Source: a virus. From it: a stretch of DNA of 64,000 bases. The DNA lies in IMG/VR virus record IMGVR_UViG_3300021142_000004; one strand, given 5' to 3'. The notes under the pieces were generated by a model. The model saw only the letters and a program-made list of their open reading frames with translations, did not search any database and was not told the DNA's origin. Made by a program: the position numbers and the translations under genes. Below, piece by piece: positions 25,026 to 43,425 of the stretch; position 1 is the stretch's first letter; the number at the start of each line of letters is the position of its first letter.

Positions 25026-25330
25026 TATAAAGTATTTAATACATCTTTATAGAACTTGTCTGAATTAACACCTGATGATCTATGTTTTAATTCTTTTCCA
25101 TTATAAATTAATACTGTAGGTATTCCAGTTACACCTAATGCGACGGCAAAATCTCTATTTTGATCAACATCTATCTTAATAAATGTAACATCTGGATATT
25201 CTTTTTCGATTGACTCCAATCTTGGTATTAGTTGTTTGCATGGGCCGCACCAAACACCGAATAGATCCACCAAAATTTTTTTACCACCTTCTTGTAATTC
25301 TTTTAATTTTTCTGCATTTACATTTTCCAT
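25025..25330 (-). CDS. trxA: Thioredoxin
   Basis: WCGPC, GIPT. Confidence 0.92.
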   Translation of the reverse strand: MENVNAEKLKELQEGGKKILVDLFGVWCGPCKQLIPRLESIEKEYPDVTFIKIDVDQNRDFAVALGVTGIPTVLIYNGKELKHRSSGVNSDKFYKDVLNTL

Positions 25331-26175
25331 TACTTAAATCCTATTTTACTTGTGTTATTTGTTTTGAATAATTCAACATCTATATTATATATATCCGCTA
25401 ATACCATTTCTTCATTAACAGTTTCCTCTTTACCTAAATGTTTTAATAATTTATTTGTTTCTTCTACATTTAATTTACCAAATTTATGTTCGGCAATTAA
25501 CCTACCCTTACGAAGTAATGCAGAATCAATTCTTTCTCTTTTCATATTAAAGGTTGCAATTATCTGTATATTAAGACAATCACCTAAAATACCATCAGTC
25601 AAATTAAGTATATTTGAAACACCTGTTGGTGATCCACTTGTCTCTCTATCACTAATTACCCTTTCAGCATCTTCAATAATTAATATTGAATTTTTGTTTT
25701 CCATTAAGAATGGGATAATACTTGGTTCAGATAATGAATCCGCCATTGATGGTGGAATAAATAATATTTCTTTATCTGTTATTAACTTGGAAAGATATTT
25801 TAAATATGATGTATTATGTGATAATATATCGTTTGTATAATATCTGTGATTAGAATCGTCATCTAATTCTAGATCAAACATATTTTCTTCATAATCAAGT
25901 TTAGTTACTTCAATTACTTCAGATTCTGTTAATAAATCATCACCAAAACAACATATTTTATCACCAATTTTTAAATCTTTAACAAAAACCTCTTCCATAT
26001 CATCCATATAAAAGACAATATGATTATCTGCACATTTTAATTCATTACCATCCGATAATTTAATATGGTAAACCTCATAAGGTATCGTTTTATGTATAAC
26101 ATTAATATCTACCCAACCATTATCTGTTAAAACTTCAATATCTTCTAATATTGTACTCTGTATAAATTTTTTCAT
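25330..26175 (-). CDS. Split intein C-half (121 aa) fused to AAA+ ATPase C-extein
   Basis: VLTDNGW, block B CADNH, block F MFDLEL, block G LSHN|T; then Walker B LIIEDAE, sensor ATFN and Arg finger ALLRKGR. Confidence 0.92.
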   Translation of the reverse strand: MKKFIQSTILEDIEVLTDNGWVDINVIHKTIPYEVYHIKLSDGNELKCADNHIVFYMDDMEEVFVKDLKIGDKICCFGDDLLTESEVIEVTKLDYEENMFDLELDDDSNHRYYTNDILSHNTSYLKYLSKLITDKEILFIPPSMADSLSEPSIIPFLMENKNSILIIEDAERVISDRETSGSPTGVSNILNLTDGILGDCLNIQIIATFNMKRERIDSALLRKGRLIAEHKFGKLNVEETNKLLKHLGKEETVNEEMVLADIYNIDVELFKTNNTSKIGFK

Positions 26176-26181
26176 TTTTTT

Positions 26182-26440
26182 TTATTTATTTATAAATTCG
26201 TTACAAATTTTTATAACCTCATCTTTATTTTTTTTCATACTCACGTTTTTTACCTTTTCCTCTATTTTTAAAAATAAATTCAGATTTTTCAATTCCAAAT
26301 TTATTTATGATTTCTTGTTTATTTAAACCTCTACTAATATTAATTTTTTCTCTTTCTTCATTTGTTTTACTATAATAAGTTTCATTTCTTTTTTTAATAA
26401 TTTCATTAATTTTTTCTTTTGAACATATTAAATATGCAGG
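26182..26440 (-). pseudogene. Decayed homing endonuclease relic between the split-intein halves
   Basis: ATG-less frame ...INKFGIEKSE... followed by frameshifted KNKDEVIKICNEFINK*, resembling the C-terminus of Vsr-like homing endonucleases. Confidence 0.5.
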
Positions 26441-26451
26441 AAAGGGTAGAA

Positions 26452-27132
26452 CTACATTAAATCTTCAATATTTATTATTGATACTTCTTTAGTTTTTTTA
26501 TTTCTTATTTTAATTTTTGTTTTACCTATGACACACTTACCTGTACCCGGATCTCCATGTAAAAGGATAATACCCTTGTCATTTTTCTTGTTTAATCTGT
26601 CAACAATAACATTATGTATCTCAAGAAATTTCTTCCCGTAATTCAACTCTAAATCAATATCTGGTACTATCAAATCATATTCTTCTTTATCCAAATGACC
26701 CATATCTGTTTTAACTAGGTTTATATTAGATTTCTTTTTAGGTCTTTCATATGTTTTAATGACATTAAAATCTAATTGTTCTTCCAAAGACCCTCTAGTT
26801 AGATTGTAATAAAAATCAATAGAGATTAGATCATTCTTTTTATCATTATCAAAATTAACAACAAACATTAATGTTTTTTTACGATTAACATATAATGTTA
26901 AATGATACATACTATGTTGTCTTTTGTTTGACTCAATCCTAACTTCTTTACTAAAACCTTCTTTATTAAAATATTCTAATATTGTTTGATCATAAAACAA
27001 TGTAGTTGAACGTTTTGAAGGTAATGAATCAAATAAATGTGTAAATAATTGTTCCGTTGGTAGATCTGCACCATATGCCTCATCATAGAAATTATAGTCT
27101 GTTGGTAAATAATTACCTATTTTTTTACTCAT
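26452..27132 (-). CDS. AAA+ ATPase N-extein fused to a 27-aa split intein N-half
   Basis: ILLHGDPGTGK|CVIGKTKIKIRNKKTKEVSIINIEDLM*. Likely start MSKKIG at 27132 (track 27192). Confidence 0.9.
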   Translation of the reverse strand: MSKKIGNYLPTDYNFYDEAYGADLPTEQLFTHLFDSLPSKRSTTLFYDQTILEYFNKEGFSKEVRIESNKRQHSMYHLTLYVNRKKTLMFVVNFDNDKKNDLISIDFYYNLTRGSLEEQLDFNVIKTYERPKKKSNINLVKTDMGHLDKEEYDLIVPDIDLELNYGKKFLEIHNVIVDRLNKKNDKGIILLHGDPGTGKCVIGKTKIKIRNKKTKEVSIINIEDLM

Positions 27133-27169
27133 AAAATAATAATAATTGAAAATAATGATAAAATAAAGA

Positions 27170-27478
27170 TTAATTAAGACATACTGGTTCAAAACCAGTT
27201 ACATCCATGAAAATATTGTTTTTTTCTTCCTGTGGGTATTCTTTTTTTGCAATTGATATAACTTTTGTTGTCTTTCTCAAAAGTTCAAATTGAACTTCCG
27301 ATAACATTGGTTCACCATTCTTATCAAAATTCTTTTGAGCAATTTCTTCCAAATATTTGAAGAATATTTCTTCATCACCGTTATCTAAAAAATAACGTTT
27401 TGATTCTTCATTACTATTAAAGAATTTCTTTACTGTTTGGATATATATTAAAACTTCGGGTGACATATTCTCTATCAT
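27170..27478 (-). CDS. Hypothetical protein
   Basis: 102-aa ORF in operon. Confidence 0.6.
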   Translation of the reverse strand: MIENMSPEVLIYIQTVKKFFNSNEESKRYFLDNGDEEIFFKYLEEIAQKNFDKNGEPMLSEVQFELLRKTTKVISIAKKEYPQEEKNNIFMDVTGFEPVCLN

Positions 27479-38852: not shown

Positions 38853-41105
38853 CTACGAAATATTTTTTGTGATGAAATCTATTGAAGATATATTTTCTTC
38901 TTTTTTAATCATGATTAAATTATCTGACCAGTTTCTTATCAATGTATTATGAGAAATTACAAATATGTGTTCAAAGTAGGTTCTAATCTTCTTAAAGAAC
39001 TCACCAACCATTTCTATATTCTCATCAGCAACTTTACCAAATACTTCATCCATTACAACAATGTTTGGTTTAGGTAATGAAGATATTTTAGTTAATACAC
39101 TTCTTAATGCCAATGATGATATTGTCTTTTCATAACCTGAACCTGAATTCAATGGCTTAACTACTCTTGACTCATTATCAATCATTAAGAACTCAACCTC
39201 ATTCTTTTCATTAATATTTAATTCCAACATGAAATGACAACTATCAGTCAACAATCTAGATAATTCTTGATTTAATAATGGTATCATATTTTTAAGAATA
39301 ATCTTAGATATACCATTCTTACCATAAATTGTTAAGTAGGTTTTAAATACTTGTATCAATTCCTCTTCTGATTTAATCTTTTTAACCAAATCATCATTAA
39401 CCTTTATCTTTTCACCCATATTGGTGATTTGATTTTTGTGTTTTTCGATGAAACCATTAGTTTGTCTGATATCACCATTGGTAGTTTCAATCAATGTTTT
39501 TAAAGTAACAACTTCATTATCAATTTTTTGATTCTCTTCTAATTTTTTCTTGTTACTTTCAAAGTTATCAAGTTTAACTTGTTTCTTGTCAATGTCCAAT
39601 TGTTTTTGTTCTGCCTCCAATTCATGACGAGTTCTACGAAGTTTATTCTTCTCATACTCATCATATTCTTTCTTCAGTAAATTCAATTTTTCATCTTCTT
39701 CTACCCTAAACTTCAATGATGTTTCTACTTCACTAATATGTCCTTCACAATCTTTTATTTCGTATTTTAAATCATTGATTTCATCTGTATGATCCACTTC
39801 TTCTAATGAACGTTTACAAGTTGGACAAACACTTCCTTCCTCTAATTCTTTAATCAATTTAAGTTTTTGATCAATATCATTACGAGTTACTTTAAGGTCA
39901 AAATTAAAGTCAGAAATAGTACTTTTAATACCTTCATGTTTATCTTCATAATAATATTCAGAAGGTTCAAGAACAGAAATTTCATTGGCACTATCTAATG
40001 TTAATTGTTTTTGTCTTTTTAAATCATTAATTTCTTTTAAAAGAACTTCCGGATTAACTTTTATTAGTTCTTGGTCAATGTTATTATTCCTTAAACGTAA
40101 TGCGGTTTCTCTTTTTTCTTCAAGATCTCTTAACCTAACATTAAAATCACCCAATTTTTCAGTTAATTTAATGATTTCACTTTCAGATTCAATTATAGTA
40201 TTTCTACAAAGAGTATTATCATTTTCTAATTGTAATAAGTTATAAGTGTTAGATACCAATTTCTTAGACCATTCATTATAAATTTCTTTACAATTATCTT
40301 CCTTTGCTTTAAGTGCTTCCAAACCTAAAAACTTAGTTAAAATCTGTCCTCTTGCAGTAGGTTTAGATTCAATCAATTCTTCCAAATTATAACCAGTCGT
40401 AAGAATGGTTGAAAGGAAGTCTTCTTGTGTTCCTATTGCAGATTCAATAAACTCTTCTGTTTCTCTTCTTTGTTCACCACTTAAATTAGTTATAGTCCCA
40501 TCTGTATTTTTCTTATAGAACTCCAATTTATTTGTAACAGTATAATCACCCGACCTACTTTTCTTCCTTGTTAAGATCCTTTCAATGAAATAATCCTCAT
40601 TATCAATTGTTATTTCCCCTTTAACTGATAACTCATTTTCATCAGAAAACCTATTGAATATTTCAATATTGGTTTTAGTTTTGGTTGTTGTATTAAAGAA
40701 TAAGAACATCAATAAGTCTACGGACATCGTAGAATTATGCGATAATATCCCATTTGAATAATATTGTTTTACCTCATCTACCTCAATATCTAATAAATCT
40801 TTATAAACACCCGTTGTCATAACAGATTTAATAACATCATTCCCATTTTCTGTTTTTATAATTTGTCCAGGAATTAATTCTTTAACTGGTAAGAATCTAC
40901 CATTTTTTAATTTTATTCTATGGTTTTTAGAACAATTTAAAAATAACCCATCGGAAGTTTCAATTCTATGAACCTCTGAGTTTTTTTCTGTAATTTGACA
41001 ATCCATTATTTTTTTAAATCCATATGGTGTTTTTACTTTTAAATTTAAATCACCATATTTTTCAAATATTGTCTTAATATCACCTATTTTTATTTTTTTA
41101 TTCAT
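38853..41105 (-). CDS. sbcC: Split intein C-half (124 aa) fused to Rad50/SbcC (gp46-like) C-extein
   Basis: VKTPYGF, CSKNH, LLDIEV, LSHN|S; coiled coils, zinc hook CPTC, signature SGSGYE, Walker B VVMDE, ISH. Confidence 0.92.
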   Translation of the reverse strand: MNKKIKIGDIKTIFEKYGDLNLKVKTPYGFKKIMDCQITEKNSEVHRIETSDGLFLNCSKNHRIKLKNGRFLPVKELIPGQIIKTENGNDVIKSVMTTGVYKDLLDIEVDEVKQYYSNGILSHNSTMSVDLLMFLFFNTTTKTKTNIEIFNRFSDENELSVKGEITIDNEDYFIERILTRKKSRSGDYTVTNKLEFYKKNTDGTITNLSGEQRRETEEFIESAIGTQEDFLSTILTTGYNLEELIESKPTARGQILTKFLGLEALKAKEDNCKEIYNEWSKKLVSNTYNLLQLENDNTLCRNTIIESESEIIKLTEKLGDFNVRLRDLEEKRETALRLRNNNIDQELIKVNPEVLLKEINDLKRQKQLTLDSANEISVLEPSEYYYEDKHEGIKSTISDFNFDLKVTRNDIDQKLKLIKELEEGSVCPTCKRSLEEVDHTDEINDLKYEIKDCEGHISEVETSLKFRVEEDEKLNLLKKEYDEYEKNKLRRTRHELEAEQKQLDIDKKQVKLDNFESNKKKLEENQKIDNEVVTLKTLIETTNGDIRQTNGFIEKHKNQITNMGEKIKVNDDLVKKIKSEEELIQVFKTYLTIYGKNGISKIILKNMIPLLNQELSRLLTDSCHFMLELNINEKNEVEFLMIDNESRVVKPLNSGSGYEKTISSLALRSVLTKISSLPKPNIVVMDEVFGKVADENIEMVGEFFKKIRTYFEHIFVISHNTLIRNWSDNLIMIKKEENISSIDFITKNIS

Positions 41106-41169
41106 ATATATTTTAACTTTTATTTATAAAAATATAATATTAGTGGAAAAACTACTGTTAGAAAAAAAA

Positions 41170-41721
41170 TTATTTTAATTCATCAGGTAAAAACCCTAAT
41201 ATTTTAATTATTTCATTTTCATCATATTCAATATCTATTAAAGTTTCTTCATCAACACATTTTCCACCAAAGTTTTTTGGGTTAGATTCCACAGCGGTAA
41301 TACCTTCAAGTTCTGTAAAATCAATAACATTATTACCACCAAATGATAAGAAATTTGAAAATTCAATTCTCTTTATGTACCATTTGTTATAACGAACTTT
41401 ATTTTCATTTAACAAATCAATTGCACCATTAACTTTATTATCTAACCTATCAATCATATCCCATTTAATGTTGATTTTATTTTCTTCAATAAAATCTTTC
41501 ATTAATTTCTTTTGGAACTGATGATCGGTGATACTATCAGAAACTTCCAATGATTTTAGTTTAGTATCATCAGTATTGATGATGTGTTTTGGAACGATTT
41601 GTACGTTTCTTGATCCATACTTATGTTGGAAGTATGTTTTTATTCTTTTAACCTTTTCTTCAGTAAAATTCTCAGGTACATCTTCCCATGTAACCTTAAT
41701 AACCGGTGATTTATATTTCAT
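41170..41721 (-). CDS. sbcC: Rad50/SbcC N-extein (with N-terminal extension) fused to a 29-aa split intein N-half
   Basis: WYIKRIEFSNFLSFG..IDF..GITAVESNPKNFGGK|CVDEETLIDIEYD... Confidence 0.88.
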   Translation of the reverse strand: MKYKSPVIKVTWEDVPENFTEEKVKRIKTYFQHKYGSRNVQIVPKHIINTDDTKLKSLEVSDSITDHQFQKKLMKDFIEENKINIKWDMIDRLDNKVNGAIDLLNENKVRYNKWYIKRIEFSNFLSFGGNNVIDFTELEGITAVESNPKNFGGKCVDEETLIDIEYDENEIIKILGFLPDELK

Positions 41722-42092: not shown

Positions 42093-42446
42093 TTATTCAT
42101 CATAAAGATCTTTTTTTGGTGTTACTTTTACCACTGGTTTCTCACCTTCTTTTATCATTTTAGTTGGTGGTGGTTCGGGTGTGTTTGGTGTTGTTTTAGC
42201 AAAAACTTTAATAGCATGTGGGAATGGTAAATTAGATTGATCTAAAAAACCAGCATCTTCCCATTTCTTTATTGTCTCTTTTTTTAAGTCATCCAATGTT
42301 TTTATATTAGGTTTTTCTCCATATTTTAATATTGTAAAACCTTGTTTAAAAACTTCATTTGCTTTACCTTCAATATCTTCAATGTTGTTTAATTTACAAT
42401 ACTGAATAAATTCTTTATCCAAGGTTAAGGAATACTTCTTCTCCAT
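42093..42446 (-). CDS. Hypothetical protein
   Basis: 117-aa ORF. Confidence 0.55.
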   Translation of the reverse strand: MEKKYSLTLDKEFIQYCKLNNIEDIEGKANEVFKQGFTILKYGEKPNIKTLDDLKKETIKKWEDAGFLDQSNLPFPHAIKVFAKTTPNTPEPPPTKMIKEGEKPVVKVTPKKDLYDE

Positions 42447-42711
42447 TCTCTATATCTTTTATATCGTTTATTTTAAAATGTAAAAAAGGACTTTCATTCA
42501 ATACATCATGAAATGTATATTCATCACTTTCCACATCATACAAACCATAACCATGATGGTTAACTGTTTCACCAAAATTTTGTTGTATTAATGAACCTAT
42601 TTGGATAATAGGTATTTTTTTTAATAATTTAATTTTTCCCATAATTCTTTTAATTTTTCTTTTATTTTTTGGTTGATAATTTTTTTTACATTGTATGCAT
42701 TCTTTCTCCAT
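42415..42711 (-). CDS. sbcD: Mre11/SbcD second fragment (probable start MGKIK at 42642)
   Basis: IGSLIQQNFGE..HGYG is the post-motif-V segment of SbcD/gp47 nucleases. Confidence 0.75.
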   Translation of the reverse strand: MEKECIQCKKNYQPKNKRKIKRIMGKIKLLKKIPIIQIGSLIQQNFGETVNHHGYGLYDVESDEYTFHDVLNESPFLHFKINDIKDIENGEEVFLNLG

Positions 42712-42759
42712 GTTTTTGTTGTTTATTATAAAAAAAAGGGATTCAACAAAATTTTAGTG

Positions 42760-43425
42760 TTATATTCTTTTCCAACCTTTTTTTAAATATCCATCAATAT
42801 CTTTTTCATCTATTTCAATTTCTCTTTCTAAATATTTTATATCTCTCTTATGTATATCTCCACATAAAACAATATCACACCCAACAAAGTTTAATTTATC
42901 ATATGCAGTTTCATCAAATTCATATCCCGTATTGGTAGTAAATCCTTGAATAGGACCATGAAATAATCCAACATGAAGTTTATCCTCTTCTACCTCAAAT
43001 TCAGGTCTATTATTGTGTTGGAATAACGAATAGACTATCCAGTTAACATTATCATCAGAATACATTCCACCGTCTCTATAATAGGTTATATTCGGGTTGT
43101 TTAATGTTTCCACAATTGGTGTGATTGTATCTAATCTATTCATATTATTTTCCAAGAAATCATGATTACCCGGTATAATGATAAGTTTACCTATTTTACT
43201 TAATTCATTGAAGAACCAAGTAACTAATACGACTTGTTCATTGGAAATATTAATTTTTTGGTGCACCACATCACCTGTTAAAACTATTCTTATTTCATCA
43301 TATTCAAAACCTTTTAATTTTGGTCTTAAATCAATTAAGAATTCATTTAATTGTTTGTGATAATGTTCGTGTAATAAGAATGTACGAACATGCAAATCTG
43401 AAATGTGTACTATTTTTTTTATCAT
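42760..43425 (-). CDS. sbcD: Mre11/SbcD (gp47-like) phosphoesterase, first fragment
   Basis: HISDLH, TGDVVH, PGNHD, LFHG and GDIHK motifs I-V. Confidence 0.9.
   Translation of the reverse strand: MIKKIVHISDLHVRTFLLHEHYHKQLNEFLIDLRPKLKGFEYDEIRIVLTGDVVHQKINISNEQVVLVTWFFNELSKIGKLIIIPGNHDFLENNMNRLDTITPIVETLNNPNITYYRDGGMYSDDNVNWIVYSLFQHNNRPEFEVEEDKLHVGLFHGPIQGFTTNTGYEFDETAYDKLNFVGCDIVLCGDIHKRDIKYLEREIEIDEKDIDGYLKKGWKRI

Follow-up and report, generated by a model that had tools for sequence, protein, structure and literature searches.

Naturally occurring, atypically split inteins are broken either right after strand beta2 (site S1, as in VidaL and PolB16) or after helix alpha1 (site S2, as in AceL-TerL and GOS-TerL), leaving an N-terminal intein fragment (IntN) of 15-37 amino acids (aa) (PMC13014065). 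Few inteins split at these sites have been characterised, namely VidaL, PolB16, AceL-TerL and GOS-TerL. Fractured genes were described by Dassa, London, Stoddard, Schueler-Furman and Pietrokovski in 2009, with eight host types that do not include SbcC/Rad50 and with one terminase split at an unusually early point, where the C-part is 122 aa long (PMC2677866). Here we analyse a split intein in the SbcC/Rad50 gene of an uncultured, AT-rich phage, contained in a stretch of 64,000 nucleotides (nt; 25-31% GC) from the IMG/VR virus record IMGVR_UViG_3300021142_000004; this whole stretch is called the window below, and the locus spans positions 38,853-41,721 on its minus strand. We consider it likely that a naturally split class-1 intein, divided at the S1 site and with an extra helix on IntN, interrupts the gene inside Walker A, between GK and ST, and that the fracture itself was the work of an endonuclease.

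A phage SbcC/Rad50 gene is interrupted within Walker A by a split intein

Two open reading frames (ORFs) make up the locus, the N-half and the C-half, and each consists of a host segment (extein) and an intein fragment, IntN in the N-half and the C-terminal fragment (IntC) in the C-half (Table 1). When the 154-aa N-extein is joined to the 626-aa C-extein, which begins with STMSVDLLMFLFFN right after the GILSHN of IntC, the resulting 780-aa protein aligns to two intein-free homologues, P0274 and P0275, with 0 gaps and 735-741 identities in 780 positions (94-95%). Walker A of these homologues reads NFGGKTT and NFGGKST at the insertion point. A syntenic IMG/VR relative (L005) carries primase, exonuclease, sbcD, two small genes, an intact 780-aa sbcC and clpP; an sbcD homologue also lies upstream of the window sbcC, with two small genes between them. 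The gapless join and the intact gene of this relative together place the insertion in Walker A, between GK and S/T, and make its boundaries exact. An earlier reading made by a model from the letters of this DNA (the sequence-only reading) had proposed a split intein in the Rad50/SbcC P-loop, which the join, the intein matches and the catalytic residues described below bear out, and its coordinates and letters for IntN, the gap and IntC were exact.

The host protein has the features expected of SbcC/Rad50, namely the GK(S/T) of Walker A, a long coiled coil containing a zinc-hook CxxC and, towards the C-terminus, a Walker B region, and residue C430 of the C-half is invariant among 26 aligned C-halves. 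The C-half matches phrog_77 (SbcC-like subunit; E = 3.6e-36), and the Pfam models SbcC_Walker_B (22.1 bits) and Rad50_zn_hook (19.5 bits) match it in the right places, both below their cut-offs. A search for homologues longer than the N-half returned 1283 proteins; all 120 of those listed were intein-free and mostly 777-780 aa long, and many intact homologues are named 'DNA repair exonuclease SbcCD ATPase subunit' by JGI. In the literature on SbcC, Rad50 or gp46 with split inteins, we found no report of SbcC/Rad50 as a host.

Among inteins of solved structure, the IntC sequence matches CatC (6dsl, the best match in the PDB; E = 6e-6), gp41-1 and VidaL (6vgv), and in a library of 1.8 billion proteins it matches 512 cluster representatives (best E = 6e-37). 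The catalytic set is complete: Cys1, which is Cys155 of the N-half and stands right after NFGGK, does not vary among 51 aligned N-halves or among 72 IntN sequences; and H62 in block B (S59-K-N-H62), D106, H123 and N124 of IntC are invariant in the 26 C-halves. The +1 residue is Ser in the window and Ser or Thr in the relatives.

An AlphaFold2 model was built, from an alignment that had been checked, for P0126, a contiguous relative 56% identical to the window intein in IntC, rather than for the window's own IntN/IntC pair. This model shows the HINT fold, with a predicted local distance difference test (pLDDT) score above 90 over the intein. Its best structural match is VidaL (6vgv; VIA-align Z 22.2, root-mean-square deviation 2.0), with 144 of 145 residues aligned over a model span of 166 residues; the 22 unmatched model residues are a helix, a cap and a linker. 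Foldseek gave E = 2e-11 for the same pair, with a TM-score of 0.88 on the target, and NrdJ-1, DnaB and gp41-1 inteins matched the model with VIA-align Z scores of 20-21.5. The window split intein is a genuine, widespread, atypically split class-1 intein, of a kind already known from VidaL and the fractured genes; SbcC/Rad50 as the host protein and a conserved extension of IntN are its new details.

Table 1. Features of the fractured sbcC locus in the window (positions are those of the window).
Feature	Position	Strand	Description or evidence
N-half ORF	41170-41721	-	183 aa; ends NPKNFGGK, then CVDEETLIDIEYDENEIIKILGFLPDELK, then TAA
N-extein, SbcC/Rad50 (gp46-like) residues 1-154, ending with the first half of Walker A (NFGGK)	41260-41721	-	gapless match to P0274/P0275
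IntN, 29 codons, CVDEETLIDIEYDENEIIKILGFLPDELK	41173-41259	-	begins with Cys, ends LGFLPDELK
IntN residues 1-13 (CVDEETLIDIEYD), catalytic Cys1 and first HINT strands	41221-41259	-	sequence comparison, conservation
IntN residues 14-29 (ENEIIKILGFLPDELK), predicted inserted helix and GFLPDELK cap, ending at the fracture	41173-41220	-	model of P0126, conservation
TAA stop directly after Lys29	41170-41172	-	sequence
Non-coding gap, 64 nt, without endonuclease gene, holding TATAAATA (41121-41128)	41106-41169	-	sequence
C-half ORF	38853-41105	-	750 aa; opens MNKKIKIGDI
IntC, 124 aa, ending GILSHN; beta3 and helix alpha1 (KKIKIGDIKTIFEKYG), block B S59-x-x-H62, block F D106, block G H123/N124	40734-41105	-	sequence
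C-extein, SbcC/Rad50 residues 155-780, first residue Ser+1 (ST of GKST), zinc hook CxxC	38853-40733	-	C-terminal part matches Pfam SbcC_Walker_B model

Position of the split

The crystallised chain of VidaL reads ESG, followed by ALPKEAVVQIRLTKKG (the 16-aa IntN with the substitution C1A) and then by MIEEKKVTVQELRELY, with IntC beginning at chain residue 20. Residues 3-123 of the window IntC align to chain residues 24-141. Since this pairs IntC residue 3 with position 5 of the VidaL IntC (chain residue 24), both IntC fragments begin at the same structural place, at most two residues apart, in agreement with the proposal of the sequence-only reading that the break follows the first ~13 residues of the canonical HINT fold. 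CatC, which is of the S2 type, aligns to the window IntC only from residue 16, and the ~15 residues of beta3/alpha1 that precede the CatC-aligned part are present in the window IntC, so that the break does not lie after alpha1 as in S2 inteins. Both beta3 and alpha1 lie within IntC and the break comes before both of them, as in S1 inteins, and in the P0126 model, too, both elements fall in the part corresponding to IntC. Alignments and model alike put the window split at the published S1 site, within the loop that precedes beta3 and alpha1.

IntN residues 1-13 correspond to the entire IntN, 16-17 aa in length, of VidaL and of the UvsX intein of phage PA5oct, described below. IntN of S1-type inteins is some 15-17 aa long; at 29 aa, that of the window is 13 residues longer than the 16 of VidaL. 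The very early cut is no novelty of this locus, as VidaL (16 aa) and PolB16 (15 aa) are already split at S1 (PMC13014065, PMC10189870). A fragment of 29 aa is already within the range of peptide synthesis, like those of AceL-TerL (25 aa) and Cat (30 aa).

IntN carries an additional, conserved element

In P0149, a 931-aa SbcC protein whose allelic, contiguous intein is 48% identical to IntC, CVTKETKIKIKIND runs straight into DIKEITIGELNDIF, without the tail. Because P0149 does without it and because beta3 and alpha1 lie on the IntC side in the P0126 model, ENEIIKILGFLPDELK is extra relative to the minimal fold; the 29 residues do not all map onto ordinary intein strands, the alternative that the sequence-only reading had itself raised. 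The element is also missing from VidaL and P0240. It is retained in three apparently contiguous inteins, P0126 (in SbcC; LGFLPDELK), P0147 (FGFLPNELK) and P0155 (IGFVPKELK), the latter two in other P-loop hosts, and in all three it is joined to the beta3 strand through 3-9 residues. More distant contiguous relatives have a helix-like D-P-E-x-x-x-L-F motif after the first strands, and in contiguous relatives Cys1 and the residue paired with IntC residue 1 lie between 9 and 49 aa apart. The presence of the element in contiguous relatives, together with this variable spacing, indicates that the tail is an insertion in a loop of variable length, that it is not unique to split forms and that the fracture lies at its end. 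The idea of an added element, as advanced from the letters, thus holds with respect to the minimal fold (P0149, P0126 model) and fails in tying the element to the split state (P0126, P0147 and P0155).

In the P0126 model, a strand (residues 181-185) is followed by a helix (188-195, PEFIISKL), a turn (DEL, 200-202) and a less confident linker, which leads into the strand at 212-216 and the helix at 217-227; pLDDT is ~95 over residues 181-200. Conservation was measured in 72 N-half clusters with a 29-aa IntN, collected through their exteins. C1, G22 and P25 are conserved in 100% of these clusters, T6 in 97%, F23, E27, L28 and K29 in at least 96% and I17 in 92%, and the same invariance is seen in the set of N-halves gathered independently of the motif. 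Across 18 loci, the residues G22, L24, P25 and L28 are fixed while their codons vary synonymously (4, 4, 3 and 4 codons, respectively; this set had been picked by the motif), indicating that the constraint acts on the protein. A truncation of IntN to 13 aa, the check suggested in the sequence-only reading, would probably fail in the window intein, because G22, F23, P25, E27, L28 and K29 are strongly conserved.

The tail is hardly acidic, contrary to what had been claimed for it: residues 14-29 carry a net charge of -2 in the window, with a mean of -1.1 over 79 relatives, and the charge of the whole window IntN (-8) resides mostly within residues 1-13. The conserved hydrophobic, Gly and Pro residues of the tail would fit a packing element better than an electrostatic one, and a conserved helical insertion in a loop is a better description than an 'added acidic association element'.

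At residues ~418-460 of P0147 (1017 aa), the sequence runs ...FGFLPNELK-KLENA-MKKIITIKQ, with a Met exactly where split IntC fragments begin, which suggests re-fusion of a formerly split intein. An origin of the element by internal duplication, with the strand and helix of IntN copying beta3/alpha1 of IntC, was rejected, as hhalign matched the two units over 8 columns only (P = 0.17, not significant).

The gap and the origin of the fracture

In IMG/VR, a degenerate DNA pattern for GFLPDELK hit 30 places. IntN tails after GGK-C accounted for 17 of them, divided between two SbcC subfamilies (NFGGK and NQGGK). A stop codon follows within two codons in all 17, and directly after K29 in 16. The stop stands directly after K29 in 17 of the 18 loci compared by codon, and 72 of the 79 N-half clusters have it there as well. 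A downstream IntC was found in 15 of the 17, which together with the window gives 16 loci with both halves.

In 11 of these 16 loci the gap measures 1.06-1.6 kb and holds an endonuclease-like ORF of ~336 aa that overlaps the start of IntC. This ORF is homologous to the gene between the UvsX halves of PA5oct (E = 1e-14); it has no match in Pfam and no sequence match in the PDB, and in PHROGs it matches only phrog_22677, a family of unknown function. Its motifs E-Y-N-G-D-x-Y-H and W-D-S-E-Y recall, by eye, the Vsr-like family. The gap is short (30-99 nt) in the remaining five loci, namely the window, L086, L091, L092 and L114, and the cap is still present in each; gap lengths across the relatives extend from 30 to 1593 nt. 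In L091 (5200-5290, minus strand), the 43-nt gap ends in ...AAAGAAAAAGTTATAAAAAA, a perfect match to the 3' terminus of the L102 gap ORF. The gap of L091 thus still holds the last codons of the endonuclease gene, which indicates the short gaps to be derived by loss, and the window locus is best read as a derivative that lost its gap endonuclease.

The first ~35 nt past the IntN stop (roughly CTTTACCTTTTTGGTTAAACGGTTATATTTATA) are strongly conserved across the diverged loci L085-L114, and L114, without a gap ORF, retains this CTTTACCTTTTTGGTTAAACGGTTATATTTATA DNA. It is probably a control element travelling with the endonuclease gene; control elements were proposed at other fractured loci by Dassa et al. 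2009 (PMC2677866).

Two other functions were considered for the window gap and rejected. Stop and gap together measure 67 nt, and the N-half and C-half ORFs consequently lie in different frames. Translational bypass or read-through across the gap is opposed by this difference in frame, by gap RNA that folds no better than shuffled sequence (z = 0.5) and by the range of gap lengths in the relatives. A T4-type late promoter at TATAAATA is opposed by its count in the window, which is at chance (25 found, 28.6 expected); a scan for sigma-70 promoters likewise stayed at chance level. The same TATAAATA precedes the IntC start codon at both split inteins of the window, 15 nt upstream in sbcC (41121-41128) and 11 nt upstream in the AAA+ ATPase gene described in the next section (26187-26194, minus strand); this may be coincidence or a common leftover of endonuclease cassettes.

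Spread of the family and further fractured genes

At least 79 N-half clusters (at 90% identity) carry an IntN of 29-31 aa. Among the best 150 IntC-like cluster representatives, the sequence begins at the S1-equivalent position in 80 and at the S2-equivalent one in 7, and a further 57 are internal; natural splits of the S1 type are common in metagenomes and few are characterised. In Pseudomonas phage PA5oct (L001/L004; NC_071039.1, 134722-137728), a VidaL-like split intein of the S1 type interrupts uvsX. There, gp276 (82 aa, 'hypothetical protein') ends in a 17-aa IntN, gp275 (477 aa, also hypothetical) is the endonuclease-like gap gene, and gp274 ('UvsX-like recombinase') begins with an IntC that aligns to the window IntC from residue 1. 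The annotation of this record makes no mention of an intein.

A tblastn search with the SbcC IntC as query (E = 2e-5) turned up a second atypically split intein in the window (25330-27192, minus strand), which interrupts Walker A of an AAA+ ATPase. Its N-half ends in GDPGTGK followed by CVIGKTKIKIRNKKTKEVSIINIEDLM, a 27-aa IntN that includes beta3/alpha1 and is hence of the S2 type; a gap of 276 nt precedes its IntC, which starts with MKKFIQSTILEDIEVLTDNGW and ends in SHN before a Thr. The sbcD/mre11 gene of the window is split as well (42415-43425, minus strand), into ORFs of 221 and 98 aa separated by 48 nt, with no intein. In L005, sbcD is a single ORF of 268 aa, with 13 residues between GDIHKR and the IGSLIQQNFGE downstream of it; the break in the window adds an acidic C-terminal tail (EREIEIDEKDIDGY...) and a very basic N-terminal head (KKNYQPKNKRKIKR...). 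An SbcD-like locus of comparable kind was described by Dassa et al. 2009 (PMC2677866).

Discussion

According to the explanation we favour, the two halves would be translated separately, one as the 154-aa extein with its 29-aa IntN and the other as the 124-aa IntC with its 626-aa extein. IntC would hold nearly the whole HINT domain, to which IntN would bring Cys1, the first strands and one extra helix. After docking, an N-S acyl shift at Cys1, transesterification to Ser+1, cyclisation of Asn124 and an O-N shift would yield a 780-aa ATPase with an intact P-loop; as the P-loop would be restored only by this joining, an active SbcCD complex would need both halves. The amphipathic helix and its GFLPDELK cap would have been inserted into the loop before beta3/alpha1, which varies in length, and left on the IntN side, where they would pack on the HINT core and be needed for folding or docking of the window intein. 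A candidate contact for them in IntC is the K-Y-G-D loop following alpha1, which the tail-less P0149 lacks. The fracture would have been made by a free-standing endonuclease gene, which most relatives still have in the gap and which would have been lost from the window. The sequences show the anatomy, the junctions and the conservation of the locus and its homology to VidaL and Cat; from these we infer splicing activity, what the helix does and the order of these events.

Several observations weigh against this explanation. Docking and splicing of the window halves are predicted from their sequences. IntC scores 22.1 bits (E = 1.4e-4) against the Pfam model PF14890 (Intein_splicing), below its cut-off of 35.8, with only residues 88-124 matching; membership among the inteins rests on the catalytic set, the junction and the fold of the relative, and not on the Pfam model. 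The placement of the helix is taken from a single AlphaFold2 model, that of P0126, whose N-extein looks error-ridden and whose contiguity could be an artefact of assembly or of a frameshift. P0149 and VidaL show that the fold is possible without the helix, so its necessity in the window intein is read from its conservation. Finally, the 64-nt gap of the window holds no endonuclease gene, and the window gave no tblastn match to the gap ORF of the relatives, so that the window copy itself lacks this mark of a fractured gene.

The tail could be given other roles. Residues 14-29 might be a dedicated association element, added to capture IntC on behalf of a very short IntN of which 13 aa hold all catalytic and fold information. 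The tail is as conserved as Cys1 and in nearly every locus, as counted above, ends exactly at the fracture; the window IntN (-8) faces an IntC of +5, with +5 in its first 35 residues, charges that resemble the complementarity described for canonical split inteins (PMC13014065); and VidaL works with 16 aa. We nevertheless regard such a capture element as doubtful. The tail is retained in contiguous P0147, P0155 and P0126, and a similar helix occurs in many distant contiguous relatives, so it was not added for the split state; it is nearly neutral, its conserved residues (I17, L21, G22, F23, L24, P25 and L28) look like a packing surface, and the net charge of IntC ranges from -15 to +10 across relatives. 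Another unlikely proposal makes the helix with GFLPDELK a portable docking module, through which an IntN no larger than a peptide would bind tightly to a pre-folded and nearly complete IntC. Were this so, assembly of S1 inteins would differ from the charge-driven capture and collapse of canonical split inteins, and the module might be transplanted to VidaL-like inteins for faster or tighter semisynthetic trans-splicing. It is decidedly unlikely that the last 6-8 residues (GFLPDELK and the stop) are a scar of the endonuclease cassette, conserved mainly by descent and homing co-conversion and dispensable for splicing. Control elements and extra terminal residues do occur at fracture points, for example 25 and 9 residues in an SbcD-like locus (Dassa et al. 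2009, PMC2677866), the DNA just past the stop is strikingly conserved among endonuclease-bearing loci, and the GOS-TerL IntN tolerates the loss of 10 residues (PMC11766414). The synonymous variation at fixed residues in the motif-picked set and the equal invariance of the motif-independent set argue against a scar, as do the persistence of the cap in the five endonuclease-free loci and in contiguous forms and its pLDDT of ~95 in the P0126 model.

All 29 residues could also be ordinary intein elements, strands and helix alpha1 as in the S2-type AceL-TerL and Cat, in which case the first ~15 residues of IntC would be the surplus. The pattern of a strand followed by I-I-K-K-L-G does resemble a strand followed by I-F-K-K-Y-G, one MAFFT alignment put the IntN of the N-halves onto beta3/alpha1 (an alignment judged misplaced), and the AAA+ intein in the same window is of the S2 type with a 27-aa IntN. 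This is very improbable, given that IntC aligns from residues 1-3 with VidaL, PA5oct and the contiguous P0149 and P0240, the latter two having no second unit upstream, whereas CatC aligns only from residue 16; that the P0126 model has beta3/alpha1 on the IntC side and the IntN segment as a separate helix; and that the profile comparison of both units was not significant. Extremely improbable, in our view, is a dead gene, in which a mobile element broke SbcC and the halves no longer splice. Its partner gene, sbcD, is disrupted in this phage too, and splicing has the predicted status given above; the exteins, however, are full length, gapless and 94-95% identical to intact homologues, all catalytic residues of the intein are intact, and the same arrangement recurs in dozens of diverged clusters, which indicates purifying selection.

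If the favoured explanation of an S1-split intein with an inserted helix holds, this phage lineage would have no SbcC ATPase until two proteins are joined at the catalytic P-loop. With several other fractured genes, the genome would form a natural record of homing endonucleases that broke genes and then left. The dozens of natural Cys1/Ser+1 variants with a 29-aa IntN would be enough for consensus design as was done for Cat, and the family would allow a clear test of the contribution that an additional conserved helix makes on the short fragment. The understanding of inteins in general is unchanged by this finding.

Among the known systems, PolB16 OarG shares with the window intein a natural S1 split and a very short canonical N-part. 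It has a 15-aa IntN and a 168-aa IntC in a PolB host and is cysteine-less, with Ser1 and Ser+1 (PMC10189870); the window intein differs in its cysteine and its host, and no sequence relationship between the two was seen. AceL-TerL, GOS-TerL and Cat (6dsl) resemble the window intein in a short IntN (25, 37 and 30 aa), a long IntC and P-loop enzymes of phages as hosts. They differ in being split at S2, after alpha1, and their IntC lacks beta3/alpha1, both of which are retained in the window IntC; moreover, the IntN of GOS-TerL is partly dispensable, whereas the tail of the window IntN is highly conserved. The fractured genes of Dassa et al. are, like the window locus, phage enzymes of DNA metabolism broken by a split intein, and the relatives of the window locus hold a free-standing endonuclease gene in the gap, tentatively linked to the Vsr-like family of those authors through the motifs seen by eye. 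The window copy departs from them in its 64-nt gap without an endonuclease and in its SbcC/Rad50 host. Closest in structure is VidaL, from the UvsX host of the Lake Vida metagenome, which is likewise a class-1 intein with Cys1 and Ser+1 (SGK in the crystal chain), split at S1 in a P-loop ATPase, and to which sequence identity in the structural alignment is ~19%. It differs in its 16-aa IntN, without the ~13-aa helix and GFLPDELK, and in residing in UvsX rather than in SbcC/Rad50.

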